64,000 nt of DNA, taken from Dictyostelium discoideum. Its lineage: Eukaryota. Position 1 is the stretch's first letter, and each line of letters opens with the position of its first letter. A program made the position numbers and the translations under genes. Shown piece by piece: positions 3,247 to 61,924 of this stretch. The stretch is taken from contig CM000152.2 in NCBI GenBank assembly GCA_000004695.1, forward strand, positions 5,760,001 through 5,824,000. The letters run 5' to 3'. The notes beneath the pieces are model-generated. The model searched no databases. It was not told where the DNA came from and was given only the letters and a program-made list of their open reading frames with translations.

Positions 3247-3645
3247 ATGAATCAACAAATACAACAACAAAAACAACAACAACAAACCAATGATGAAGAT
3301 GATGACATATTATCAAATGTATTTTCAAATACATCATTTATAGTTGATCCGGATTCTAATTTTAAAAAAGAAGAAAATACAAGATTAAAACAATATAAAT
3401 CAATAAATTCAAATCAACATGAAAAGAGAATTCAATACTTTTTAGATAGACAAAAAGAAAAGAGAAGAAGCTTATTATCACATGTTAGACAATTAATTAC
3501 ATTACCAACAAATGATACTTCAATTGAAATTAATACAAATACTAATACTACTACTAATAGTAATAATAATATTAATAATAATGATGATGTTTCAATGAAT
3601 GAAGATGAAAATATTTATGATAATAGTAATAATAATAATAGTAAA

Positions 3646-3678
<33 letters not shown>

Positions 3679-4563
3679 GATAAATTTAAAGAAATTAATA
3701 AAAAAAAACAACAAAATAAATCAACTAAACAAGATTTATTATATTCAAATCATTTAATGTTAGCAGAGGGTATGGTACATATACCAATTACTTTAGAGAG
3801 AGAATGGTATTGTGTACCTGTACCACTTGGATATCGTTGTTTAGTAATCTCACAGAATGATTGGACAATAGTTAGATCAGCAGAGAATGGTCAAGTTTTA
3901 AAGAGATTTAAAAGTTTATTACCATTTGGTAGTGAAGAATCAAGAGAATCATGTCCACCCCAAAATCAGCATTGTATATTAGATTGCATATTTCAAGATA
4001 CTGAAAATACCTTTTACATTTTAGATATCCTATCTTGGAAAGGTTATATATTATATGATTGTGATACTGAATTTAGATTCTTTTGGAGGGATTCGAAATT
4101 ATTAGAATCAAAGTTACATCAAGGTCAACAAACAAAACAAAAAGAAAATCAAATAGAAAAAGAAAATGAAAATGAAAATCAAGAAGAAAAAGAGGTTACA
4201 TTTTTATCAATACCATATTTTAGTTCAAAGGTTGATTCATTAGAACAAATTAAATTTGACTATTTATTAAAAAGAAATAATGCCAACACTGATAAACAAA
4301 TTTTACAATATAAAACCGAATTTTTATTATTTTATCATAAATCATCACATTACGAATTTGGTACAACTCCTTTATTTTGTTCTTTAGCTATTGAATATAT
4401 TGATACCGTTATTGAAGTTTTAAATTATAGAAATCAATATGGTACAGAGGAGGAGGAGCAAGAAGAAGAAGAACAAGAAGAAAAATATCAACAAGAAAAA
4501 GAACAGATTGAAAATAATTATAGTTTTAATAGTAGTGATAATGACTATGAAATGAATAAATAA
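3247..4563 (+). CDS. Snurportin-1 homolog (m3G-cap snRNP import adaptor), single exon, 438 aa
   Basis: N-terminal IBB-like stretch (RLKQYKS...QHEKRIQYFLDRQKEKR...HVRQL). m3G-cap-binding core GYRCLVISQNDWTIVRSAENGQVLKRFKSLLPFG...CILDCIF...TFYILDILSWKGYILYDCDTEFRFFWRDSKL matches the snurportin signature, recalled from memory with no database search. Confidence 0.7.
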
Positions 4564-15151: not shown

Positions 15152-17009
15152 TTAATTTGCTAATTTAAAAGTAGTTTCTTCACAACCATATGCTTTTGGT
15201 GATAATTGAATTAAAGTATGTAATGGAATATTAATGAAGGGGCATTCTTCTTTAACTCTACCTTTGAGATAAGAATAGAGACAACGAAGAGTGGCTTGAT
15301 GAGAAACGATTAGGACTGGTGATTTAGTTCTTTCCAATTCTAATAATAGAGGTTCAAGACGTTGAATTACATCTTCATAACTTTCACCTCTTGGATAACG
15401 ATATTGAAGTTTATCAGAATCACGAGCAGCCCTTTCATCTGGCATTTTCTCTTGAATTTCTTCATAGGTCATACCATCGCAAACACCAGCATCAATTTCA
15501 TCCAATGCTCTCATTACAACCTTTGGTTGAGAGATATATTGAGCTGTACGAATTGCACGTTTCAAACTTGAGGTCCATACCACAACTTCACCATCGTAGC
15601 CGTCAGCACGGACTTTTGAACACCATTCACTAATCCAAACGGCCAATTGGTGGGCGTAGTTATCGCCACGTTCAGTGAGGTCGCTGTCGCCACCAATACG
15701 ATTTTGGGCGTTGAACTCGCTCTCGCCCTGACGGGTCAACCAGATGGGACGGGGGTGGAGGTTGGAGGTTCATGAGGAAGAACACCACCCTGCTTGGTAT
15801 GTACCCGGTGATGTTATTCACCTCGATCTTCTTGCCAACATCGAATAGCTTTATGTAGCGAGTTTTCTCGCCCTCCACAGTCTCATACACTTTTAGATAA
15901 TGATTGATTCTATCACGAAAGTCTTGCACGGCCTTGGAGGGATCCACACCCTGGTAATCGGGTGACAATAGTTTGGTCTCCTTAATGTTATGTTCGATCA
16001 CTGATGCATCATTACAAATTGATTCTACATAAACCACAGTCATCTTTTCACGAGTGCATCTTTTCTCTACTAATTGTCTTCTCTCGTTGGTGGAGTTGGT
16101 CGCATCGTAAATACCAACCCTACCACCGTTATGCAACCATGATATCATGTCGTCCAATGCCGCAACTGCCATATGCAATCTCGCCTTTATACCCTCTGGA
16201 TTATGTGGATCAAAGAAGTCATGTGGTTGTCCTGCACCAATTCTTAATCTTCTATATTCTCCAACATTAAACACCTTGGCTGGTACTAACATCCAATTTA
16301 ACATTCTACATATCTTTCTTGCAACATATGTTTTACCTCTTGCTGGTAATCCAACCATTACTAAAACTATCTTTTCTTTATCTAATCCTGTATAACCTTG
16401 TGATCTTTTTTTTGTATCTTCATCTTTTTAAAAATATAAAAAAAAAAAAAAAAATTAATTAATAATCTTTTTTTTTTTTTTTTTTTTTTTTTTCTTTTTT
16501 TTCTCTCTCTCTCTCTCTCTCTCCTACAACTTACTATACTCATGTCTAATTAATAATTCTTGATGTTCTTTTATATCATTAACATCAATAACTTGTTGTT
16601 CTTTATTTGTACCTTTATCAATTATAAGGAATTGAATATCAACATCTTTTGGAAATTCTGGAAACTTTTGTAAAAATAAAAATTTTAAATCTTCAACAGA
16701 AATACCTTTAAAATATGCTTTTTTAACTCTATCTTTAACTCTAAAAAATATTTCTCTACTATTTGGTATTGACGATGATGATGTTGTTGTTGTTGATGGT
16801 GTTGGTGAATTTACATTATAATTATTATTGTCATTATTATTATTTATATTAAAATTATTACCATATCTATTTGAAGAAGGTGATGATGACCCTGCTATAT
16901 TACTCCCAGGTGGTGATGAAGATGGTGATGATTTCGGTATTGAATAATTTGATTCATCATGGTCATTATGATTATTATCTACTGTTATTTGCGTTGTAAA
17001 TATATTATT
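15152..17009 (-). CDS. 6-phosphofructo-2-kinase/fructose-2,6-bisphosphatase (PFKFB). The main exon 15152..16423 carries an apparent +1 frameshift near 15751..15755. The upstream exon 16535..17009 is PB1-like, Ser/Asn-rich and has no start codon
   Basis: The kinase domain (…KIVLVMVGLPARGKTYVARKICRMLNWM…) and the histidine-phosphatase domain (…LTRQGESEFNAQNRIGGDSDLTERG…VVVWTSSLKRAIRTAQ…RYPRGESYEDV…) are both present. Two overlapping ORF-track entries (15672..16358, 15152..15739) join into the expected …FFLMNLQPPPRPIWLTRQGESEFN only if one C is removed from the C5/G5 run. The upstream exon ends …LIRHEY + a | GTAAGT at 16534. The intron (containing (CT)11) ends AAAAAG at 16424, and the splice is in frame into N-EDTKKRSQGYTGLDKEKIVLVMVG. 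The upstream exon is open from the stop at 17010 to 16535 and contains no in-frame ATG. Confidence 0.6.
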
Positions 17010-17522: not shown

Positions 17523-19929
17523 ATGGATCACCACAAACAATTGACATTACAAACCACATTAGAAAGTTGTAATAATTTATATAATTTATTATTTAATAGT
17601 ATTGGCTCAATTAAACCATCACAACAACAACAACAACAACAACAAAATCAAAAAAATACAAATTCAGTTACATCTAATACAAATATTATAAATGATCAAG
17701 AGATATTTAAATTAAATAAATTTCATTTATATGGTGAGAATAATATAGATGAATTATATAATTCAATAGAATTACAATTACAAACTATTAAATTCACATG
17801 CCAACAATATAGACAATGGGATAGCACAGAAAGAGATTCAATTAAATTTTTTAATACTCAAAAACTTTATAACCAATCACAACAACGTGGTAATTTAGTT
17901 TCAAAAACTTTATTTGATTGTTCATTACTTGGTAAAATTTATTTAAATCAACAAAAAGAACAACAACAACAACAAAAACAAAAAAATAAACAACAACAAC
18001 AACAACCACAACCATTAGTTGAAGATTTATCAAAAAATATTTCAAAAACAGTTGAAGTTAAAAGAAAATTAGGTTTATTAGCAGGTAAATTACAAGAAAT
18101 GACAAATGAATTAAATAATAAATATTCAACATTCTCTGTATTGGATGATTTATTAGGTTTATTAAAAAGTAATACTGAAATTGATTATAATTCAGATTCA
18201 TATGTTAGTTGTAATATTTCTTCTTCAACTTTTTTATTAGATGTAAGTTTTTTTATACTTTCCACCACCACCACTTCCACCATCACTACCACCACTACCA
18301 ACATCACCACCACCAACTCCAATTTATTAAATTTTATAAATTTATATATATTATATTTAGATTGATATTTATCATAATGGTGAAATTAAAGAAGTTAAAC
18401 TTGTACATATTTTAACAACTACTGGTGAAGTTGAACCAGCTGAACAACAATTTAATGATGAATTAACCAATTCATTGAAAACAGATATGAAAGAATTCAT
18501 TAAAAAAGTACAAAGAATTTGTGATTTAGATTTACTATTTAGAAAGTATAAACATTTTGATTTACAAAAAGCATTTTCAATTTTACAATCTGATTTTTTA
18601 AATATTTCAATTAATTCAAAGTAAGTTTTTTTTTTTTTTTTTAAACTTAATTACAATCAATCAATGAATAAATAAATAATGAATAATAAATAATAAATAA
18701 TAAATTTTAATTAATAAAATTTTATAAAAAAAAGTATAAAATATATTGATAATAAAGAAATTGAAATGAATAAAGGATTTGGTGAAATTAAATTAGATTG
18801 TTGTGGAGTTTTAATTAAATATTTTCAATCATATATTGAAAAGATATCAAAGATGAATGAACCTTATTCAATAATGATTGAAATGGAATCATCAGCAGTT
18901 ACAAATAATGGTTCATTAATTGATCAATCTGAATATTCAAGATTATCTTTAAAAACTTTATTACAAAAACAACAACATACTCAACCATCAGCTCAAACAG
19001 ATTATTCAGAACAACAACAACAACAATCAATATCAACACAATTAACATCAATTGAATTTAATGAGAAAGATTGTTTAGATTGTGAACCACTTTCATCAAT
19101 GTTGGAAAGTGATTCAATATTTTCACCAGTTAGATTGGTTTGTAAATTAAATAAACCAATTTTAATTACAAATCAACAATTATCAAAAATTTTAAATTTA
19201 TCAAAAATTCATAGATCATCACAACAGCCATCCCAACAACAGCCATCTCAACAACAACAACAACAACAACAACAACAGCAACAAAAGAAATTAAATTCAG
19301 TTGATGAATCAATGAATGAAAATGGTGATAGTAATATTATTGAAAATATTAATGAATTAATAAAGAAATATTCAATTCAAAATCTTTTAATATCATCATC
19401 ATCATCATCATCATCATCAAATGATTCAAATATTTCGGTGAATGTTGATAATAGTTTTGATTGTGAAGTTTATGGTATGAAACAAAGATATTATTATACA
19501 GGTGAATTTGAATTAGGAATTGAAATTTCAAGAATACCAATTTATCATCCAAGTCAAGTTTATCCAACAATTCAATTATTAAGACAACAAATTGTATTTA
19601 ATATTTTATTTAAAAGTTGTTTTCAAAATTTAAATATCTCTAAAAGTGATGATCATCATAATATTATTGATAATAATAATGATGTTAAAATTTTTGAAAT
19701 CACATCAAATCCACCAAATTCTATAAATATAATATTTTTACATCCAATTGATAATAGTTTTAACTCTATTGATATCTTTATAAAGAATAATGGAGATTTA
19801 GAAGCTTTCTATTATGATAATACAACAAATATCCAACCAAATATTCAAAAATCAACTTTATTTACAAAAATGTTGATAAAATCTTTATCAATTTCAGTTT
19901 CTTTAGCATGTTTTTTTAAAAATAAATAA
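17523..19929 (+). CDS. Hypothetical Gln/Asn-rich protein, 3 exons: 17523..18242, 18361..18620, 18735..19929 (about 724 aa)
   Basis: Exon 1 ends …FLLD | GTAAGT (18243). The 118-nt intron ends ATTTAG at 18360. Exon 2 (IDIYHNGEIKEVKLVHILTTTGEVEPAEQQFNDELTNSLKTDMKEFIKKVQRICDLDLLFRKYKHFDLQKAFSILQSDFLNISINSK) ends …TCA AA | GTAAGT (18621), phase 2. The AAAAAAAAG acceptor at 18734 joins in frame to …NIKYIDNKEIEMNKGFGEIKLDCCGV…. No domain recognised. Confidence 0.5.
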
Positions 19930-21549: not shown

Positions 21550-21579
21550 TGTGATACAGGTTTTAATGCACTAAAAATT

Positions 21580-21660
21580 CGACACCTGCAGGGTTCGAAC
21601 CTGCGCCTCCGAAGAGAACGCCTTAGCAGGGCGCCGCATTAACCACTTTGCTAAGGTGTC
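21580..21660 (-). tRNA. tRNA-Ser (anticodon GCU), class II with long variable arm, 81 nt
   Basis: Minus-strand read: GACACCT-TA-GCA-AAGTGGTTAA-TGC-G-GCGCC-CTGCTAA-GGCGT-TCTCTTCGGAGGC-GCAGG-TTCGAAC-CCTGC-AGGTGTC-G. The acceptor stem pairs 7/7. The anticodon loop CU-GCU-AA gives anticodon GCU. The T-loop is TTCGAAC and the variable arm is CUC/GAG. Confidence 0.85.
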
Positions 21661-21699
21661 ATTGAAAACCAAATGGGTTATACACTTTGCTAAGGAGTT

Positions 21700-23277: not shown

Positions 23278-23871
23278 CTAATAACAATTTTCAATTAACC
23301 ATTCAATTCCTTTATTTATACCTAATCCTGTTGCACTACTTGAATATTCAATATGCCATTTTTTATTGTATTTATTATCGTCATTTGATAATTCTAATAG
23401 TATTTCCAATTCTGAAATTGTTATAGGATTATCACGATTAAGTTCATAATAAGTGTGTCTTTGATCTTCCTTAAACAAAAATTCTTTATCATACTTATTT
23501 AAATAAATTAAAATTGGAATTTGTTTTAAATCAATTTGATCATTTAATAGTTTTAAAATTTCAAATTTAACTTCATCAATTTTTTCTCTATCTAAACAAT
23601 TAACTACAAATATTATTGCCGATATTTCTTTATAATAATATTTCCATAAATTATTATTTATTGAACAACCACCTTTAACATCGAATATAGTAAAAGTTGC
23701 ACCATTTAATTCAATATCTTCATAATTAAACCCAATTGTTGGTATGGTTTTTTGAATTTTATTAGTTTTCATTTTATATAACATTGTAGTTTTACCACTA
23801 TCATCAATTCCAATCATTAATATTTTTTTACCAATTTTACAATTTGTTAGTTTAAATATTAAATTTCCCAT
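23278..23871 (-). CDS. ARF-like small GTPase (Arl family), 197 aa, single exon
   Basis: MGN… has an N-terminal Gly for myristoylation. The P-loop is GIDDSGKTTMLYK, followed by a DVKGG switch-II variant, an NKYD (NKxD) motif and SSA (SAK-like). The overall Arf-family layout is present. Confidence 0.7.
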   Translation of the reverse strand: MGNLIFKLTNCKIGKKILMIGIDDSGKTTMLYKMKTNKIQKTIPTIGFNYEDIELNGATFTIFDVKGGCSINNNLWKYYYKEISAIIFVVNCLDREKIDEVKFEILKLLNDQIDLKQIPILIYLNKYDKEFLFKEDQRHTYYELNRDNPITISELEILLELSNDDNKYNKKWHIEYSSSATGLGINKGIEWLIENCY

Positions 23872-25478: not shown

Positions 25479-27871
25479 ATGAAAAATATTTTAAAAATTT
25501 TAATTTTAATTTTAATATGTATAAATAAAATAAATTGTCTTGATGGAGATGGAAAACAATTTAGAATGATAATGTTATTATCAGCCAATGTAAATGATAT
25601 GGGATTTAATAATATGATGAATCAAGGTAGAATTGGAGTTTCAAAGAATTTACAAATTGAAGATTCAAGATTAATAGTAGTAGATGGAGAGAATGATACC
25701 AAAGCCTTAGTTGAACCAATCCTACAAAATGAAGATATCGATTTCGTTATATGTTCTAGCCAAGGTCATACTGTCGCATGTAAATATTTTGCCGATAAAT
25801 ATTTAAAACATCCAACTGTGAAAACCCAATTCTTAATCAGAGGAAGTGGTTCCTCAACAGCCAATCTAATCCAATTCAACTATAACTTTGCCTCATGCAA
25901 CTACATGAGTGGTTACTTTGCCGGTTTGCATACAAAAACCAATAAAATCGGCTTCCTTTCACCGGGCGCCCCAAAGGTGAATGATGCTTGGGTGTATGCA
26001 TTCTGGCTTGGAGCAAAACAAGTTAATCCAAAAATCCAATTTTTCTACTACAACGTAGGTGCATTCTTAAATCCAGACGCTTCCGAAAGAGCCACCAACG
26101 ATCTATTGGAGAGAGGTTGTGATGTCATTGGTAATACATTGGATGATTTCTCAAGTGGTATCACAATTATGTCCAAAGGGTATCGTACGATTGGTACCAA
26201 TGGTTTCCCACAAAAACTGATCTATGGTGAAAAGATTCTATACAGTTATGCCTACAATTGGACTAAACTATTCTTACCAATTGCTATGAGTGTCAAAGCT
26301 GGTATTACCAATAATACCAATGGCTATGGTGATTTCAATCTTGATGAAAGTAAAAACTTTTTCAATATAGAATATAGTTATGGTGTTAGCACTGATACAA
26401 TCAATAGAATGAATCAACAAATTACCTTTTTAAAATCAAATTCAAGATTTACTCATCCATATTATTGTAATGAATATTTGCCAGAATATACTAAAAAAAA
26501 TAATTTAAATTTATCAACTTCACCAACTGTTAATAATTTAATTTGTATTGATCATTCAACATTTTTAAAAATTAATCCACCATTTCCTGGTATGACTTAT
26601 TTAGGTATTTATAATATATCATTAGTTGAAGTAAATATTATATTTAAAAAAAAAAAAAAAAAAAAAAATTATTTATTTTATTTATATATTAATTTTAAAA
26701 TTTTATTATTTTTTTTAAATTAAAATAGGTTGAATTTTCACAATCAATCCAAAATGGTTTTTCAATTACAACTGGTATTTTAATTGGAATTACAATTTTA
26801 ATGATGATTGGTATTATTAAATATAGTAAAACTCCATCAATGAGATCAGCAAGTCCAATTTTCTTAAATTTTATATTAGCCGGTGGTATAATTGTTTATA
26901 TTGGTATAATTGTTTGGGTTGGTCCAATGAGTACTCATTCATGTAATGCTAGACTTTGGTTAGTTACACTTGGTTTTTCAACATTAATTGGTAGTTTGGT
27001 TGTAAAGAATTTTAGAATTTGGTTAATTTTTGATAATCCAGAATTGAAATCAATTAAAATTACAAATTATCAATTATTCCCATGGGTTGGTGCTTGTTTA
27101 GTAATTAATATCATATTAATGGCAATACTAACAAGTGTTGGTGATTTAAAACAAATCGATGCAATGAATATTGATTCGTTAGGTAAATATGAGTATATGA
27201 AAGTTTGTAAAATGAATAGTTCTGGTGCATCAACATTGTATACGATTTTAGCATATTTCGCAGCACTACTATTGGTTGGTGTATTTGTATCATGGAAGAT
27301 TAGAATCGTAGATATTCTAGAGTTTAATGAATCTGGTGCAATTGCAAATACATTATATGCTATTAGCTTTTGTTTATTCGTAATTGTACCATTGATGATA
27401 TCACCACAAGATATGCAATCAGAGACTATTATACTTTGTACAACTGGTTTATTCATTACCACTGCGGCTTTATTGATTATTTTCATTCCAAAATTCTGGA
27501 GAGTATTTAGAAAAGGTGCTAATGATAGTGAAATTAATTTTAATAAAAAGAAATCATCATCAGTTGCAACTGCACGTGCTGAAAGTGGTAGTAAAGGTTC
27601 AAATGGAAATGCTAGTAGTGGTAATAGAACAAATCGTAGAGGAAATGTTGTATCTGGTGATTTTACTGATGATTCTGAATCATCTGTAGGTGATGAAAAT
27701 CAAAAAGAAAAAGAAAAAATAAAAGATGATGTTGCTAATGTTACCTCTGGTGCAGTTTTGGCTGAATTTACTGATGAAGCTTCAGATACAGATAATAATG
27801 AATTTAATGATATTGAATTATCAGAACAACCACCAAGTATTATTGTCAATGATTCAGAAAATAATAATTAA
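25479..27871 (+). CDS. Class-C (family 3) GPCR-like protein. Periplasmic-binding/BMP-like extracellular domain plus 7TM, Grl (metabotropic glutamate/GABA-B receptor-like) family. 2 exons: 25479..26630, 26729..27871 (about 764 aa)
   Basis: Signal peptide, then GFNNMMNQGRIGV…VICSSQGH… (BMP/PnrA-like binding domain). Exon 1 ends …SLVE | GTAAAT and the 98-nt intron ends AAATAG. Exon 2 (VEFSQSIQNGFSITTG…) holds seven hydrophobic helices including NARLWLVTLGFSTLIGSLVVKNFRIWLIF (class-C TM3-like), followed by an acidic Ser-rich tail. Confidence 0.6.
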
Positions 27872-28595: not shown

Positions 28596-29444
28596 AGTAA
28601 AGTGATTAGTAACATAAATTTTAAAATATTTTTAAAAATTGAATTTTTAAAAAAAAAAAAATTTTTTAAAATTTATTAAAATTGAATAGAAAAAAAAAAA
28701 AAAACAGAAAAAAAAAAAAAAAAAAAAAAACAAAAAAAGATATATAAAAATCCAATGACACTGTTATTATTTATTTATTTTCATATTTCCAAATTATTTT
28801 GATAAAATCCCCACACCCCAACACATCGTCGTTCACACCATAACTTTTTCTTTTTAGGGTTATCTAGATAATTTTTTTTTTTAGAAAAAAAAAAAAAATG
28901 GTATTATATATAAAATGATGTTGATATTTTTAAAAAAAGGCTGATAAATAACAACACCATTATTTTTCCTTTATTTATTTTAATTTTTTTTTTTTTTTAT
29001 TAAAAAAAAACTAATTTTGTAACTAAACAAAAAAAAAATTTTAAAAATAAAAAAAAAAAGTTTAAAAAAAAAAAATTTTAGTCTTTTTATTTTTAAAAAA
29101 AAAAACTATTTTTGTAAAACCTATAGGACAAAAAAAAACATCTAAATTTTATTTATTTATTATTTTTTTGCACATCTAATTTTTCTTTATAGTAAAAATA
29201 AAATATTTATAAATTTTTTAAAAAAAAAAAAAAATAAAATAAAAAAAAAAAAAAAAAAATTACCAACTGACAAACTAAAAAAGAAAAAAAAAAATAAAAA
29301 TAAAAAAAAAAATCTAATAATTAAAAAAAAAAAAAAAAAAAAAAATAATAATAACAATAATAATAAAAAAAAAAAAATAGAATAATAACAAAGATTTTAA
29401 ATTTATAAATAAAATAAAAATTAGATTTCCAATTTTTTTTTTTG

Positions 29445-31965
<2,521 letters not shown>

Positions 31966-32758: not shown

Positions 32759-33268
32759 ATGAAAAAAAGAGTAACAATTAGATTTTATGTTAAAAAGAAA
32801 TTAGAATATGGGCAAAGATTAAAAGTATGTGGATCAGTTAGAGGATTGGGTAGTTGGAATTCAAAATCTGCCATCCAAATGAATTGGACAGAGAATGATT
32901 GGTGGACTGGTGAGTTTCAATTTGAAGCTACTTCAAATTTACCCAAAAACAACTTCAAATTAGAAACATCATCATATTATTTTAGAAATAAAAATCAATA
33001 TCATAATAATAATAATAATAACAACAACAATGAGGGTTTTATTGATCAACAACAAATTAATAATTTATTTTCAAATAGTAAAAAACAAAATCATTTACCA
33101 AAATCATCATCATCCTCATCATCATCATTCTCATCATCATCAATTTCATCATACACTGTAGAAGAGGATGATTATTTTGGTAATAATAATAATAATAATA
33201 ACAACTACAATAATCAAAGTGTAGACAATAATAGTTTCATGAATAATCAAATGTCATCATATGATGAA

Positions 33269-33326
<58 letters not shown>

Positions 33327-35128
33327 GTTATAATAATGGTTATAATAGTGATACATTAAATTATGGATGTGGTGATGGTAGTTCAAATAGTGTAAATTAT
33401 CAATTAAGTAATTCACAATCATTATCTCCATCACTTAAAGGTACATCACCACAATTGATCGAATTTGATTATAAATATATGTATGAATCTTATGATTGTC
33501 AATATTGGGAGAAAGGAGCAAATCATCGTGTTTCTTTTATGATGTGGTCAAATGATTTCTCAAATGAAGAAGAAGAAATTTATATTGAAATTAGAGATGA
33601 ATATGAAGGTGTATGTATAACAATATTTTTATATATATATATATATTATTTATTTACTAATAATAATAATTAATAGGGTAATGAAGTTTTCCCAACATTA
33701 GATTATAGATCATTAAGTAAAGTATCATCACCACCATTATATAGTTTGGATGAATTATCATTAATCGATAGTAATAGTAATATTAATAATAATAATACAA
33801 CATCAACACCATCATCATCAATAACAACTACAACATTAACATCAAATAATAGTAATGATGATTTGGTTGGATTACAATTTAAATATTCATTTTTACAACC
33901 ATTGGAATCACAAATTATACCAAGATTTCCAGCACAAATTTGTACATTTGTTGTGATGGATGAAGGTGATTCTGAATTTCATTCAGTGAATTTAGTTAGT
34001 CAATTCTTTGGTACCGATAGTCAGAAATCATTGAGAATGTATCCAGTGACAAGAGCAGGATCATCTAATACCATTTGGATAGGTCAAATCTATTCACCAC
34101 AACCAATGAAATTTGAATATCATTATGTTGTAACAAGTAGTAATAATCGTGGTATCTATTGGGAGAAAGAGAAACGTACATTTTCAACATCGAATTGTAA
34201 TGATAATTTGGTGATCAATAATGATGGTATGATAAAGTACTCCGATGTGTCTGATAGTTGGGTGAAGACTGGTTTCGTGGGTCTATTGGAACAGGATTAC
34301 AATTGTTCGATATCGTGTGTCGTTCAATTATTATATCATATAGTACCATTACGTAATATCATCAAGAATTTGGGTGGAAAGATTGGGTTCCCTTTCACCC
34401 AATGTTTGGCAAAGATTTTCACTTCAATGGAGATGGGATTCGGAACCACCGATATATCACCTCTACCCAATTCAATAGGGTCACAGGATTCTGCAGAGAT
34501 ATTGGATATCATTGTCAATGCTTTGATCGAGGAGATATCAAGAATTTCAAAGAATAATAATGATTACAGTTTGTCAATCGAGTGTTGTAAATTGTTTGAG
34601 GGTGAACAACAACATACCTACGTTTGTATCGATAAGGATGGTAGAATCAACTCTATGAAAACTAGTAATGAAAAGTTTGTAAATATCATATTACCAGTGA
34701 AAGGATTCAGTTCCTTGGAGGACTCGTTGGAGTTCTATAAACATAGTGAGGAGAAATCGGTGGTTGGCGATGGTAGCATCTATGAATCTATGAATGAGTT
34801 TGTAACGATTCCTGATATTTTAATATTCCAATTGGATCGTACAGATTATGAAAATAGAAAAACTATAAAGGTTTCAAATAATTTCAGTTTTCCAAAATCA
34901 TTAGATATCACTAGTCATAATGGTGATAGAGTTAAATTCAAAATAGTTGGTATCCTTTGTCATTCAGGTTCTGACTTTTATGGTGGTGGTCATTTCTTTT
35001 TATTCATTCATCAAAATAATAAATTTTATAAATTTGATGGTTCAAATGTTTCAATTTCAAATAATCAAGAAGCAATCATTAATAATTTTGGTGGTGATTC
35101 AAATCAAACTGCTTGTATGTATTATTAA
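32759..35128 (+). CDS. Protein with an N-terminal CBM20 starch-binding domain and a C-terminal USP-type ubiquitin carboxyl-terminal hydrolase (C19) domain. 2 exons: 32759..33610, 33677..35128 (about 767 aa)
   Basis: CBM20: VTIRFYVKKKLEYGQRLKVCGSVRGLGSWNSKSAIQMNWTENDWWTGEF…IEFDYKYMYESYDCQYWEKGANHRVSF. The intron is GTATGT…TTAATAG (66 nt), phase 0. USP Cys-box-like: GLLEQDYNCSISCVVQLLYH. USP His-box: KFKIVGILCHSGSDFYGGGHFFLFIHQNNKFYKFDGSNV. Confidence 0.55.
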
Positions 35129-35938
35129 ATTATTATTTTTTTTTTTTTAAAAAAAAAAAAAGATATTAATATATATATTTTTATTTTACTTTTTTTTTAG
35201 ATGTTTTGATTTATCAAAAAATAAATCAATTAGATAGTTTTAATTAAATTGGGATAGATATTAATAATAAAAAAAAAATAAATAAAATCTTAAAAAAAAA
35301 AAGAAATAAAAATTTTTTTTTTATTTATTTATTTTTTTATATTTATTTTTAAATCAGAATTCATATTTAGATTAATAATATAATAATAATAATAGAAAAA
35401 AAAAAAAAAATAAAAAATAAAAAAAAAAATAAATTGGAAAAATAAAATTATTTTTAGTGGTATTCACTATTTTCATATCCATCAAAGATATTTTTTTTAT
35501 TTATTTTAATTTCTTTTTTTTTTTTTTTTTTTTTATTTTTTTGGGGTTAATGCACCTTAATTTCATTTTTTTTTTTTATTATTATTTTTTTTATCATAAA
35601 TGGTATACATTCATTAACTTTTTTTAATTTAATAAAATGAAAAATTTAAAATATTAAAAAATGTAAGTCATTTTTAGAATAAAATTTCAACATCTTTTTT
35701 TTTATTTTCTTTTTTTGTATAAAATATGTCTATTTTTATATCACATGTGTTTTATTTTATTTTCCAATAAAAATAAAAAAATAAAAATAAAAAAAAAAAA
35801 AAAAGTAAAAAAAAAAAAAAAAGTTAAAAAAAAAAAAAGAATAGTTTTCTAGAGAACAACACATATTTAATACAACCTCATACTACACACACAAAACACA
35901 CACATAATATTAACAAAAAAAAAAAAAAAAAAAAAAAA

Positions 35939-40480
<4,542 letters not shown>

Positions 40481-55574: not shown

Positions 55575-57647
55575 TTAAACATAAAAACCATTACAATTTA
55601 ATAAAACTATATCAGAAATTAATCTTCTTGTAGTTTCACAACTTGTTTCAATATTTACATTTTGTGGTGATAAGTGAATATTTGTAACTTGGTCACTATT
55701 ATTGTTGTTGTTTGTTTTGTTTTTACTTGAAATTTTAATTAAATAATAGTTTTCATTTATTTCGAAATATTCAATAGAATCACCATTATTTTTAAATTGT
55801 TTTGTTGAATTTATAGCCTTTATAATATTTTCAATTGAAAGTGTACCCCAAATAAACTTTTCTTTGATATGAATGATTTTATTACTATCAGAAATATTTG
55901 GTGGTGATATTATTAATTCATGATCACTCATTGATAAAACACCTGATATCTCTGCTACATGAATTGGTTGTTGATTATTTATTGTAGTTGTAGTTGTAGT
56001 AGTTGTATTATTTTTTAATTGTGATGATTTATCTAAAACTTTTGTTTGAATGGTTTGAGCTAATTCTTTATCAATAAAACCAGATTCAAAATTTTGATTA
56101 TTTTGAATTTTAATTGTATCTAATGGTAATATTGTTGTGACTATACCAAAATTACCATTTGAATGTTTATTTTTTACATAATCTTTTTTTTTTTGTATAT
56201 AAATTATTGAGTTAGTATTAAAAAATCAATATGTATATTTTTTAAGTAACTTACTTTTATAAATTCTAGGTATTATTAAATGTTTTGGAGATAATTTTGA
56301 AATTAATAAATTTGCTTCATTAAAATTTATACGAGGATCAATTGGTAAGAATTGAATTCTTGATATTTGTTTAGAGAAAGGTAAGACGGTTGATTTGAAA
56401 TCGAAATCAGGTTCAATTAAGAGTATTGAATTCTTTGGATTATCGTAGAGTTTAATTAGAGTTGTGATATCACCAATTCTACAACTTGGATGACCAGTGA
56501 AAATGATACAAGGATCATTTGCTTGAAAATTTGAATGTACATGTTGATAGGCTTGAAATTGGCCTTTTCTCATTAGATCTTGATGGAGGAAAGGTGTTTC
56601 AGGCATGAAAGCTCTCTCTTGCTTCGATTTATTTAACCACTCTGAATAGATATCGGCATAGGATAACACGGCTTTACTAACGGATGAAACGAAATAAATC
56701 GGAACATAAGGCAGACCGACTTTATTCAAATAGTCTGCTAAATGTTCAAACAAATCCAATATGATACCACATGAATAGGAGGGTATTAAAACTGTACCAC
56801 CTTGTTGTAACGTAGAGCCTATGTTACTGCAAAGTTCACTCAACATTTGGTCGGGTGGATTGTTTGGATAATGATTGATTTTACTTAGAATTAATACATC
56901 TGGATTATCAATTGGTGATAATTGAAATGGTGTTGGATAACGTGATAATGATAAAGACGAATCCGATATATAGACCACCCTTTCAAAGCCTTTACTCTCA
57001 ATGACCCAATTTGCCGATCCTAACCCATAGCCACTACTACTTGGAATACACTCAAATCCATAGTGTTTAATACTTTCATTGAATCGAATCGATTGTATCT
57101 TTTCAAATGATTTCTCTATATCAATCTTTTTATATAAATCCTTCCATCTATAACTATCCCTATATAAATTCTCATTCTCCATACCAACATTATGTACATT
57201 TAATTTCTCTAATATTTCAATATTTTGCCAACAATCTGATAAGTTATTATTATTATTATTATTATTTATACTACTATTACTATATTGTTTATCCATTTGT
57301 ACTAATTCTTCAAGTAATAATCTTTTAATTTTGTTTTAGTATATATATTTATATTTTATATTTTTATTGTTTAATTTTTTTTAAAAAACTTACTTTCCAA
57401 TTTGAACAGTTGGTTCAGTTGCATAAATTTTACCTTGAAAATTTGTATATTCAGTGATAAATGGTAATGCATAGATATTTGTATAATTTGAAATTAAAAT
57501 CATATCAATTGTTGAAAAATCATCAATCATTTCAAATTGAGGACAATTATATTTTATGTTACTACATCCATTATCAATATATAATGTTCCATTTATATTT
57601 TTAAAAAATTGATTCAATTCTTTATCTTTTTCTTTAAATGAATATGA

Positions 57648-57725
<78 letters not shown>

Positions 57726-57857
57726 ATTTAAATTCTTTGGTAAGAAATGAAGTATTGATGAAATTTCTAATGCACAATCTAATAGTATTTTAACATTTTT
57801 ATATTCTAATAGAAAACATGGTGATTGAGCTGATTGACTTAAACAATGAACTTTCAT
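55575..57857 (-). CDS. Integrator complex subunit 9 (INTS9; catalytically inactive beta-CASP metallo-beta-lactamase). 3 exons: 57394..57857, 56255..57321, 55575..56182 (about 712 aa)
   Basis: MKVHCLSQSAQSPCFLLEYKNVKILLDCALE…[47 protein letters not shown]… aligns with human INTS9 (MKLYCLSGHPTLPCNVLKF…IMLDCGLD…[46 protein letters not shown]). Further on, …SSGYGLGSANWVIES…SDVLILS…NPPDQMLSELCSNIGSTLQQGGTVLIPSYSCGIILDL…GLPYVPIYFVS…EWLNKSKQ…PETPF…CIIFTGHPSCRIGD…IEPDF matches the INTS9 middle region. Donors are GTAAGT (x2) and acceptors are AAAAG and AAAAAG; phases add up (464+1067+608 nt). Confidence 0.75.
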
Positions 57858-59047: not shown

Positions 59048-59606
59048 ATGAATGGTCACAACAGGAATAATAGTGGAGGTGATAGTAATAAAATGGAACA
59101 GATAAAAAATAAATTTTCATCTTCAACAAATAATAATAATAATAATAACAATAATAACAATAACAATAATAATAAGAGACTTAGTAGGGGGAGTACAATT
59201 GGTAATTTTAATAATTCAACACAAAATAATAATACTAATAATAATAATATGAATATGAGTATGAATATGAATAATAATAATAATAATGGAGAAACAAGTG
59301 GATTTATTGCAGATAGGGTGAAATTTTTTCAACAAAAAGATGTGGAATGTAAAACACAATCTCCAATTGTAAACTCTAGACATAATAGACAAAAAAGTAA
59401 CTGTTCAAATGAAGGTTTATCACCTCAAAAATCATCTCCAAAAATTATACCAAAAGAAAACCCACAGCCACCACCCCCACAAATACAAATTCAACAAAAA
59501 CAACCACAACAACCACAACAACCACAAAAACTACAACCAAAACAACCACCAAGAGTACAAAGAGCATCAACATCAATTAATTTAAATAGTAATATATCTG
59601 GTAATG

Positions 59607-59638
<32 letters not shown>

Positions 59639-59779
59639 TTTAATAGTGGTGGTAATAAAAGAAGATCAAGAGGACTATTGCCAACTCCACCAATTTCAAG
59701 ATCGACAAGTATAGATAGTAATTTAGGTGACAATATAAAACAACAACCACCACCACTATCGAATATCGAAAACAATGTA

Positions 59780-59840
<61 letters not shown>

Positions 59841-61924
59841 TTCAAAATAATGTACATAAAGATGAAGTAATTGTAGATGAAGAATATAATCAACAACAAA
59901 TTAGTTTAGAGAATTTAACAATGAATAATTTCGATAATGAAGGATTTGATGTTCATTCAAATACAATTGATGGTTCTAATATTGAATGTAGTGGTAGTAT
60001 TGAAACTATTAATAATGAAGGGTTTGGTGGATTTGGTGGTGATATAAATTGCAATGATTTGGATAATATTGGTAGTGGTGGCAGTGGTGGTATGTTTGAT
60101 CCATATTATAATATAAATCAACATTCTTATAAAAAACGTCCAATGGATAAAGATACCGAGACGGTTTTAGAGGCAATTGATGTTTTAGAAAGGTATCATA
60201 AATCACCTCAATTAGTTGATGTATCAATGTTAATGGAAGCTAATAGTGCAAATTCCACGGACACTGATAGTATTAGCAATGCAAGTGGTACAAGTACTGG
60301 TAGAAATAGTTTAGAAAATAGTGTAATAAACCAATGGAAACCATCCTCTAAACCTCCACAAATACCAATTTCATCTTCTGCATCCTCTTCCTCTTCTTCT
60401 CTTTTATCAACCACATCAACTCAATCTGAACCAATATCGACAATAAATAAAAACCAACGTCAACAAAAAAGAAAATCAAATAGTCAAGGTACATTTTTAT
60501 CAAAATCAACACCTGGAACCACACCTAATCAAACCACTAATTCAAGTGATGAACAATTACAAAGAAAGGTTTTAGAAGAATTATTAGCAACTGAAGAAGA
60601 TTATCTAAGAGATTTAGATTTCATAATAAATGAAATGGTTGAACCATTATCATCAAAAGGAATATTGGATAAACCAAATATAATGAATATATTTTCAAAT
60701 ATTGAAATCATAAGAAATGTTAGTAAAACTATAGTTGATGATTTAAAACAAAATCCATTAACACTTCATTATTGTGTTATGGTTTTTAAAAAAATGGTAA
60801 ATAAGTTTTTTTTTAAAAAAAAAAAAAGAAAATAACAAAATATTTATTTTAATTTTTAATTTTTTTTTTTTTAGTCAGCATTTTTTAAAATGTATTCACA
60901 ATATTGTACACATCATCAGAAATCGATTCAAGTATGTTCAGAATTAGTTAAAAGTAATTCAACATTTTCAACATTTAAAAATGAAATATCAAGTAATAGT
61001 AATGGTAGAGGATTATCAATGTTGGATTATTTAATAAAACCAATTCAACGTATTTGTAAATATCCACTACTATTTAATGAATTATTAAAGAGCACCACAA
61101 AAGATGATGAGGATTTCTCAACATTGACAGAGGTTCATGGTAAACTTGTAGAGGTTGCAGAGTTTGTTAATCAATGTCAACATATTAAAGAAAATAATGA
61201 AAGATTATTAGAGATTCAAAATTGTGTTGAAGGATCTCCATTTCCAATACTTGAATCAACAAGAAAGATATTAAAAGAATGTTGGGTTAGAATTAAAGAG
61301 GGTAAAAATGATAATGACAATCATAATAGATATATTTTCTTATTCAATGATAATATCATGTTTACAAAGAATAGTTCATTCACAAAGAAATATCAATACC
61401 AATATTCATTCTCTTTGCCCTATCATTCAACCAAGTTATTACCTTCTGTTAAACCATTATCAATTCTATTAAATGGTTTAAACTCTGACAATATTTCAAT
61501 ATCCATTGAAGTTATATTTCAAGAACAGGCAGAGAAAGATGAAGTTTCATTGTTATTGGCTGATTTAATAGATCAAGGTAAAAAACAATTGGAAAAATTA
61601 AAAAGTCGTTCATCAGTTTTAATTCCAAAAAATTTATCTGAAAATAATAGTCCAAATACTTTTAAATCAAGTAATATTAATAACAAATCTTCAACAACAT
61701 CATCATCTTCTTTTCAACATCAAAGTAGTAGTAGTAGTATGAGTAATTTAACATCACCTCCATTTATATCAAGATCTCAAACCTCTCAAACTTTATTACA
61801 ACAACAACAGCAGCAACAACAACAACAAAGTAATCCAGCACTATTAAAATTATCAAAAATTATGTTAGAAGAGGATGCCAAAAAAAGAAGATCAACTTTA
61901 AATCCAATCGAAAAGAAAAATTAA
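59048..61924 (+). CDS. RhoGEF (Dbl-homology domain) protein. 2 exons: 59048..60796, 60875..61924 (about 932 aa)
   Basis: An N-terminal Asn/Gln/Pro-rich region precedes a DH domain: RKVLEELLATEEDYLRDLDFIINEMVEPL…IFSNIEIIRNVSKTIVDDL…VFKKM | GTAAAT…TTTAG | SAFFKMYSQYCTHHQKSIQ…GLSMLDYLIKPIQRICKYPLLFNELLKST. This is the canonical DH CR3 motif. A PH-like region follows. Confidence 0.7.

Follow-up and report, generated by a model that had tools for sequence, protein, structure and literature searches.

Laforin is a CBM20 phosphatase that recruits the E3 ubiquitin ligase malin to glycogen. CBM20 modules are also found in other non-amylolytic cytosolic proteins of quality-control and ubiquitin pathways, among them the glycophagy receptor STBD1, which has no enzyme domain, and the E3 ligase RNF213 (PMC12203941), a giant ligase and not a protease, whose CBM20 is N-terminal. 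In tissues of mouse and human, ubiquitin is attached to glycogen itself, a modification that rises on fasting and can direct the polysaccharide to lysosomes (Jochem et al., Nature 2026, PMC13345935). The isolated catalytic domains of the ubiquitin-specific proteases (USPs) USP10 and USP21 were assayed in vitro on Ub-maltoheptaose in that study, and USP10 also on Ub-glycogen, with CBM20 serving only as an engineered glycogen probe or tether (PMC13345935). The ubiquitin is joined by an oxyester to the C6-hydroxyl of glucose, and for most non-protein conjugates of ubiquitin it is not known, according to a 2025 review, which deubiquitinases (DUBs) act on them in cells (PMC12203941). The mammalian HOIL-1L/LUBAC-OTULIN system likewise concerns ubiquitin chemistry on glycogen, but no glycogen-targeted DUB has been described in it. 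Dictyostelium DUBs have had little attention, with ubpA and ubpB discussed in a review (PMC5666861). Here we describe a gene in a 64,000 nt stretch of the Dictyostelium discoideum genome (assembly GCA_000004695.1, contig CM000152.2, positions 5,760,001 to 5,824,000 of the forward strand; hereafter the window, in whose numbering all positions are given) that starts at position 32759 and whose predicted product joins an N-terminal CBM20 to a USP (peptidase C19) protease domain. We favour, with moderate confidence, the interpretation that it encodes a cytosolic, catalytically competent USP that would be tethered to glycogen particles by its N-terminal CBM20.

The locus was modelled as a single + strand gene of three exons encoding 778 aa, spliced from canonical Dictyostelium-type signals. 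Exon 1 (32759..33610, aa 1-284) is open from its ATG and encodes the entire first CBM20, including a long in-frame insert. The ATG at 32759 opens a frame of 304 codons, and a second open frame in the same phase runs to 35128. Between them, intron 1 (33611..33676; 66 nt, phase 0, GTATGT…TAG) contains in-frame TAA and TAG stops. Exon 2 (33677..35114) encodes aa 285-763 plus 1 nt, comprising a linker, a second CBM20-like domain and the bulk of the USP domain. Intron 2 (35115..35200; 86 nt, phase 1, GTATGT…TTTAG) holds the in-frame stop at which the second frame ends (35128), and its splicing changes the C-terminus from …QTACMYY to …QTAYVLIYQKINQLDSFN, each followed by a stop. The 47 nt exon 3 (35201..35247) encodes aa 764-778 and the stop TAA, reading Y-VLIYQKINQLDSFN and forming the final β-strand of the USP core. 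The spliced C-terminus (QTA/YVLIYQK, the slash marking the junction) matches the terminal strand of USPs through a motif, AY(V/L/I)LIY(E/Q)K, that is common to the orthologues, which read QAY(L/I)LIYEK. In the exon structure reconstructed for comparison from the orthologue of Polysphondylium violaceum, the final intron interrupts the same codon (A/Y) in phase 1. A sequence-only reading of this locus had placed the gene at 32759-35128 in two exons; its start stands, while its end does not, since the coding sequence is spliced on to 35247 through the third exon that had been overlooked. The same last exon is absent from the public models (P0001 = KAM9964088, P0010 and P0012): the stored D. discoideum models, which come from other isolates, lack exon 3, two of them terminating at …QTACMYY, and the public model of Dictyostelium purpureum (1261 aa) reads through the last intron and is fused to the downstream gene. 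An identification of the gene with DDB_G0291324, a 'carbohydrate-binding domain-containing protein' detected in a life-cycle proteome, was considered and dropped because the genes around that identifier (RNase PH, an acyltransferase and an EF-hand protein) do not match the neighbours in the window.

A fusion of this kind could be an annotation artefact in which a CBM20 exon and a USP exon from two neighbouring genes have been joined. This possibility gains some room from the model having been built from D. discoideum genome sequence, and from the exact spliced 778-aa protein finding no match in a collection of 15 billion protein sequences, but it is contradicted at the junction itself, which falls within an invariant block (IEIRDE-x-GG/xxxxPTLD) and coincides in position with intron 1 of the P. 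violaceum gene, located after the first Gly of GG (G219) and likewise in phase 0. Moreover, every orthologue model has both domains, Trinity transcripts of Ceratiomyxa fruticulosa carry both as well, and the 66 nt between the exons are too few for a terminator and a promoter. That the exons might belong to separate genes had been raised in the sequence-only reading, and in view of the junction block, the P. violaceum intron and the Ceratiomyxa transcripts we regard it as extremely improbable.

A second D. discoideum genome (GCA_054859355.1, locus L001), when compared with the window, points in the same direction. Exonic indels of 3, 9, 15, 42, 9 and 12 nt separate the two, every one a multiple of three, the first four being length differences in the low-complexity insert, while intron indels include lengths of 1, 14 and 8 nt (1 and 14 nt in intron 1). 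Exon 3 is 100% identical in the second genome and intron 2 has many substitutions and indels. Over the whole gene we counted 56 synonymous versus 6 non-synonymous codon differences, with 39 versus 3 in exon 2 and 32 versus 1 (Ile to Val) in the USP region. Together with the conserved junction, the frame-keeping exonic indels and the ratio of 56 to 6 identify the locus as a real, single gene under strong purifying selection.

On sequence criteria the first domain is a CBM20. The Pfam CBM_20 profile (PF00686) matched it in two stretches with E = 7.9e-16 (58.1 bits against a cut-off of 23.3), and removal of the low-complexity insert merged these into a single match over profile positions 2-86 of 97 (E = 3.8e-15). 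Recognisable CBM20 motifs in exon 1 include VTIRFYV, GQRLKVCGS, LGSWN, W43, W48/W49 and IEFDYKYMY…YWEKGANHRVSF. The N-terminal half (32771..32941, aa 5-61) corresponds to profile positions 2-62 and contains the candidate glucan-binding residues Y17, W33, W43 and W48/W49; the C-terminal half (33398..33610, aa 214-284) contains QSLSPxLKGxSPQ, FDYKY (K239), WEKGANH (W250 and N255) and the last strand, IEIRDEY. A profile of the domain matched the glucoamylase starch-binding domain (1AC0), domain E of cyclodextrin glucanotransferase and STBD1 in the PDB. In the alignment to the Aspergillus niger glucoamylase starch-binding domain, Y17, W33, K239, W250 and N255 pair with Y527, W543, K578, W590 and N595, positions that we take to be the maltooligosaccharide-contacting residues of site 2 (Y527) and site 1 (the other four). 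Site 1 (W543, K578, W590, N595) is thus matched by W33, K239, W250 and N255, and at site 2 (Y527, Y556, W563) Y17 corresponds to Y527, with W43 and W48/W49 lying near the positions of Y556 and W563 in a part without residue-level alignment. W33, W43, W48, W49, K239, W250 and N255 are invariant columns of an eight-species alignment, and Y17 is conserved in each of the seven sequences spanning its column (P0005 begins downstream of it). The glucoamylase and cyclodextrin glucanotransferase modules, the best PDB matches, share these aligned ligand residues, but they belong to secreted glycoside hydrolases or transferases and are uninterrupted, whereas here the module carries an insert and is joined to a protease.

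The insert is an in-frame Asn/Ser-rich low-complexity segment of about 140 aa (about aa 75-213, about 32981..33397 on the + strand) in a loop of the CBM20. It was found at the same place in all dictyostelid orthologues, variable in length and composition, whereas Ceratiomyxa has merely a short loop there. Conserved dictyostelid-specific sequences flank it, LPKNNFKLE before and QSLSPxLKGxSPQ after. The latter (33416-33457, aa 220-233), directly after the insert, contains two Ser-Pro dipeptides, is invariant and is absent in Ceratiomyxa; it is a candidate proline-directed phosphorylation site that could regulate glucan binding.

Both the insert and its flanks are atypical of characterised CBM20s, and this bears on the question of what the domain binds. 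If its partner were another polysaccharide or a protein, or if it regulated the USP intramolecularly, the link to glycogen would be spurious; the low confidence with which the CBM20 fold was modelled and the lack of a W543-equivalent Trp in the second CBM20-like domain would also suit such an explanation. The site-1 Trp pair, Lys and Asn and the site-2 Tyr are kept across the dictyostelids, however, which is hard to explain without α-glucan binding, and the Ceratiomyxa CBM20 is uninterrupted and matches the profile at 3.8e-16. Weighing these observations, we consider a different ligand or an intramolecular role very unlikely.

About 120 aa between the first CBM20 and the USP core are conserved, with a mean column identity of 74%, and we interpret them as a second, degenerate CBM20-like domain (33878..34234, + strand, aa about 352-470; …WIGQIYSPQPMKFEYHYVV…IYWEKEKRTFS…). 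CBM_20 was the best and the sole consistent Pfam match in all eight domain-2 sequences (D. discoideum, six dictyostelid orthologues and Ceratiomyxa), at borderline scores of 18.4-23.8 bits against the cut-off of 23.3 (23.0 in D. discoideum and 23.1 in Ceratiomyxa). Alignment of the domain-2 profile to that of domain 1 with hhalign gave a probability of 69% over 27 columns containing an FEYKYV…WE motif. Because of this consistent match and the hhalign result, we grade the assignment as a probable, degenerate CBM20. The Ceratiomyxa copy, whose match spans profile positions 15-92 of 97, retains the Trp of 'NSW', whereas the dictyostelid copies have lost the W543-equivalent Trp. A PDB profile search with domain 2 gave nothing but an insignificant match to StcE (E = 0.33).

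The C-terminal part of the protein matched the full Pfam UCH profile (PF00443, positions 1-254) at aa 485-768 with E = 4.2e-25 (89.2 bits against a cut-off of 23.9). Most of this catalytic domain is encoded by exon 2 (34277..35114, + strand). The Cys box, TGFVGLLEQDYNCSISCVVQLLY (34271..34339, + strand), contains the core GLLEQDYNCSISCVVQLL with the catalytic C494 (34304-34306), and the His box, GGGHFFLFI, contains H723 (34991-34993); D738 (35036-35038) completes the triad. Among solved structures, the USP7 catalytic domain is nearest in sequence; it aligned from the Cys box to the His box (E = 1e-15) and pairs C494, H723 and D738 with USP7 C223, H464 and D481. The triad is invariant across the orthologues, and C494 is kept as well in an Acytostelium paralogue and in Ceratiomyxa. 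The ubiquitin-tail motif QQDAxEF can be made out in SQDSAEIL, whose residues D555 and E558 do not vary among the orthologues. We also modelled the structure of the P. violaceum orthologue (P0003). The overall mean predicted local distance difference test (pLDDT) score was 48.5, with the USP part alone modelled confidently (pLDDT 70-88); that part matched USP12, USP46 and USP7 in Foldseek with E values of about 1e-16 to 1e-17 and target template modelling (TM) scores of 0.6-0.73. Taken together, sequence and model place the domain in the USP (C19) family by every feature tested except the oxyanion-hole Asn.

At that position, five residues before the catalytic Cys, E489 (34289-34291) pairs with N218 of USP7 and the GLxN signature is not kept. 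The residue is Glu in seven dictyostelids (six in the alignment plus D. purpureum) and Gln and His in the two Acytostelium copies, while in Ceratiomyxa it is still Asn (GMINTFASCSINSVLQ). The change is accompanied by N493, directly before the Cys and invariant in dictyostelids, and the USP7-type GNTCYxNS has become DYNCSISC in D. discoideum. Because Asn persists in Ceratiomyxa and the substitute is conserved in dictyostelids, we read the Cys-box deviation as a derived, conserved dictyostelid feature of an active site that appears otherwise intact. The domain scan that had been proposed with the sequence-only reading agrees with most of it: a clear CBM20 in exon 1 split by a poly-Asn/Ser insert and a USP core in exon 2 with an intact His box both scored far above the Pfam cut-offs, and the divergence it saw in a Cys box that keeps the catalytic Cys can now be traced mainly to E489 in place of USP7 N218. 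The second CBM20-like domain had no place in its layout.

The altered oxyanion position is also a reason to ask whether the protein might be a pseudo-deubiquitinase or ubiquitin receptor, a glycogen-anchored adaptor that would read or shield ubiquitin marks and hardly hydrolyse them. The loss of the GNTCYxNS pattern and a UCH score of 89 bits, compared with 128 in Ceratiomyxa and about 200 in USP7 orthologues, also speak for such an adaptor; against this, no orthologue departs from the Cys, His and Asp of the triad, and neither does the Acytostelium paralogue. Inactive USP-like proteins usually lack one of the three. In addition, the ancestral-like Ceratiomyxa protein keeps the oxyanion Asn, so the family would have started as a normal enzyme, and the invariant Asn before the catalytic Cys might compensate for the one lost from the oxyanion hole. 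An adaptor without appreciable hydrolysis is for these reasons a distinctly unlikely description of the protein.

Although USP7 (HAUSP) shares the Cys-His-Asp triad and a QQDxxE-type ubiquitin-tail motif with the gene product, and likewise has no CxxC pair in the fingers of its aligned sequence (the Cys residues that D. discoideum has in the fingers are unconserved in the orthologues), the two differ outside the protease. USP7 has a MATH domain and C-terminal ubiquitin-like (UBL)/ICP0-binding (USP7_C2) domains, for which the gene product gave no Pfam matches, and the N-terminus here is a CBM20 followed by a CBM20-like domain. As judged from this domain composition, the gene product is not a USP7 orthologue, because it lacks the MATH and UBL domains that are present in the true USP7 orthologues recovered by the exhaustive profile search described below.

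The distribution of the architecture was examined at two depths. When the C-terminal half was compared with 5.8 billion proteins in a word-indexed search, the closest proteins were those of a D. discoideum model cluster (P0001), and seven further proteins (P0002-P0008) were returned, all eight with precomputed PF00443 and PF00686 annotations; P. violaceum, Tieghemostelium, Heterostelium, Cavenderia and Acytostelium are the species named among the seven (5/7), and the D. purpureum orthologue was added by a profile search. An exhaustive search of 1.84 billion representative proteins with a hidden Markov model, of which the best 150 matches were examined, additionally found an Acytostelium paralogue without the first CBM20, two metagenomic fragments and the Ceratiomyxa transcripts, in which CBM_20 (3.8e-16, in two stretches) and UCH (7.5e-37) lie on one mRNA. 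Among these best 150 matches, which reach down to about 80 bits, so that an independent CBM20-USP fusion could exist below that score, the two-domain architecture was seen only in Eumycetozoa, namely in nine dictyostelids and the Ceratiomyxa transcripts. Most other entries match just the USP part, and the nearest of them are USP7 orthologues. In the ten multi-stretch matches that were domain-scanned, UCH was always present and CBM_20 never; USP7-type MATH and/or ICP0-binding domains occur in seven of them, and the other three (P0034, P0046 and P0058) have tandem UCH. Four further entries, judged without a domain scan, were not counted as CBM20-USP proteins. P0015, P0017 and P0018 are high-scoring vertebrate proteins from clusters with USP18-like members and, with their many matched stretches, resemble tandem USP18-like arrays; P0029, from an alga, matches the profile best in its CBM20 region. 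Among the best 150 matches, then, the architecture is confined to Eumycetozoa, and the presence of both domains in Ceratiomyxa transcripts indicates that it is older than the dictyostelid radiation. Databases already hold the fusion through automatic domain annotation, some orthologues being named 'carbohydrate-binding domain-containing protein', and full-text literature searches that paired CBM20 or starch binding with deubiquitinases, Dictyostelium or amoebae found no description of it. The sequence-only reading did not recognise a CBM20-USP architecture; the architecture is rare, and undescribed in the literature searched, but not new to databases.

Two proteins met in these searches differ from the rest. 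P0014 (Acytostelium subglobosum, 377 aa), the paralogue mentioned above, comprises the end of CBM20-like domain 2 and the USP core, with the Cys box GLEHKDFNC, in which His occupies the oxyanion position; this copy could be a paralogue that lacks the glycogen tether, or its model may be truncated. In P0009 (Dictyostelium dimigraforme, 485 aa), part of a KR domain is joined to frameshifted stretches that share 90% identity with segments of the USP domain; the copy has become a pseudogene, or else the model or the assembly is at fault.

The sequence-only reading had proposed that deubiquitination would be targeted to glycogen, a proposal strengthened by the invariance of the glucan-binding residues and of the catalytic triad. 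For the glycogen-tethered USP that we favour, the following mode of action can be proposed. The CBM20 would concentrate the enzyme on α-1,4-glucan, which in Dictyostelium would mean glycogen, to our knowledge its only α-1,4-glucan store, and the degenerate second domain may assist in tethering. A cytosolic location would be in keeping with the N-terminus, which starts right at the first CBM20 strand and shows no evident leader on inspection, a signal-peptide predictor not having been applied. At the particle surface the USP domain would strip ubiquitin from conjugates, for which the candidate substrates are glycogen-bound proteins or enzymes, or ubiquitin esterified to glucose units of the glycogen. 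Such activity would counteract the ubiquitin-driven disposal of glycogen or of its enzymes, for example by lysosomal or autophagic delivery. In bringing a ubiquitin-system activity to glycogen through a CBM20, the protein would resemble the laforin-malin pair and form its conceptual mirror image, an eraser opposite a writer, but there the E3 is recruited and not covalently fused, and the gene product would remove ubiquitin, has no phosphatase domain and shares no sequence relation with that system beyond the CBM20. STBD1 and RNF213 are similarly unrelated to it outside this module.

Several observations weigh against a catalytically competent, glycogen-tethered enzyme. The oxyanion Asn-to-Glu change could lower or alter catalysis, and the insert of about 140 aa might disturb glucan binding. 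The CBM regions of the P. violaceum model, which was built from an eight-sequence alignment, have pLDDT below 50, and the case for the CBM fold is for this reason argued from sequence alone. A profile search with the alignment of the first CBM20, aimed at further CBM20 proteins of dictyostelids, for example an E3 ligase counterpart, gave no match, and we know of no demonstration of glycogen ubiquitination in Amoebozoa. A narrower version of the proposal takes the remodelled Cys box, with its Asn-to-Glu change and the replacement of Thr by Asn beside the Cys, as an adaptation to oxyester or glycan substrates, in which case the protein would be a dedicated eraser of ester-linked ubiquitin on glycogen glucose; we regard this as a tentative and rather unlikely extension.

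Since the natural fusion has been kept from before dictyostelids and Ceratiomyxa diverged, it offers a 'Rosetta stone' argument for a functional link between ubiquitin removal and α-glucan particles outside animals. Dictyostelium development relies on large-scale glycogen turnover, and the gene provides a concrete candidate for a glycogen-ubiquitin eraser in a genetically tractable organism, which matters because ubiquitination of mammalian glycogen was found to be abundant and under physiological regulation only in 2026 (PMC13345935), and the enzymes that would erase it in cells are among those the 2025 review lists as not known (PMC12203941). Who erases ubiquitin on glycogen, and whether glycogen ubiquitination is ancient, thereby become directly testable questions. 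Were the protein to act on glycogen-bound proteins, it would supply an eraser counterpart to the laforin-malin logic of Lafora disease; were it to act on ubiquitin-glucan esters, it would be the first natural glycogen deubiquitinase, and polysaccharide ubiquitination would be an ancient regulatory layer of glycogen metabolism that includes Amoebozoa and extends beyond mammalian LUBAC. The protein could also lend itself to experimental use, as a DUB already targeted to glycogen with which its ubiquitination could be manipulated.

The surrounding window is extremely AT-rich, with a GC content of about 13-37% per kb, and contains poly-Asn tracts. Eight other genes in it are recognisable and have no obvious connection to glycogen or ubiquitin, encoding a snurportin-like protein (3247-4563), a 6-phosphofructo-2-kinase (15152-16358, - strand), a Med1-like protein (18766-19929), an Arf-family GTPase (23278-23871, - strand), a class I/II aminotransferase (45820-47271), a GT49 glycosyltransferase (48010-49539, - strand), a β-CASP/metallo-β-lactamase protein (56226-57857, - strand) and a RhoGEF-PH protein (59048-61924). 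A tRNA-Ser gene (anticodon GCT) lies at 21579-21661 on the - strand. Immediately upstream of the CBM20-USP gene are two tandem family-3 G protein-coupled receptor genes of the Dictyostelium Grl type (25479-27871 and 29442-31965, + strand), each consisting of a Bmp/PnrA-like periplasmic-binding open reading frame (ORF) followed by a 7tm_3 ORF, in a gene order repeated in the second D. discoideum genome. Downstream are two ORFs rich in poly-Asn and poly-Gln, of 1513 aa (35939-40480, + strand) and 945 aa (41585-44422, - strand), neither with a Pfam match at E of 1e-4 or better. Farther on, a 1346-aa ORF with a GlfB-like C-terminal domain (51380-55420, + strand) occupies a region of unusual composition, in which GC content reaches 0.36, GC skew is -0.48 and AT skew rises to +0.41; a 595-aa ORF that overlaps it in antisense (51409-53196, - strand) is probably an artefact of repetitive codons.

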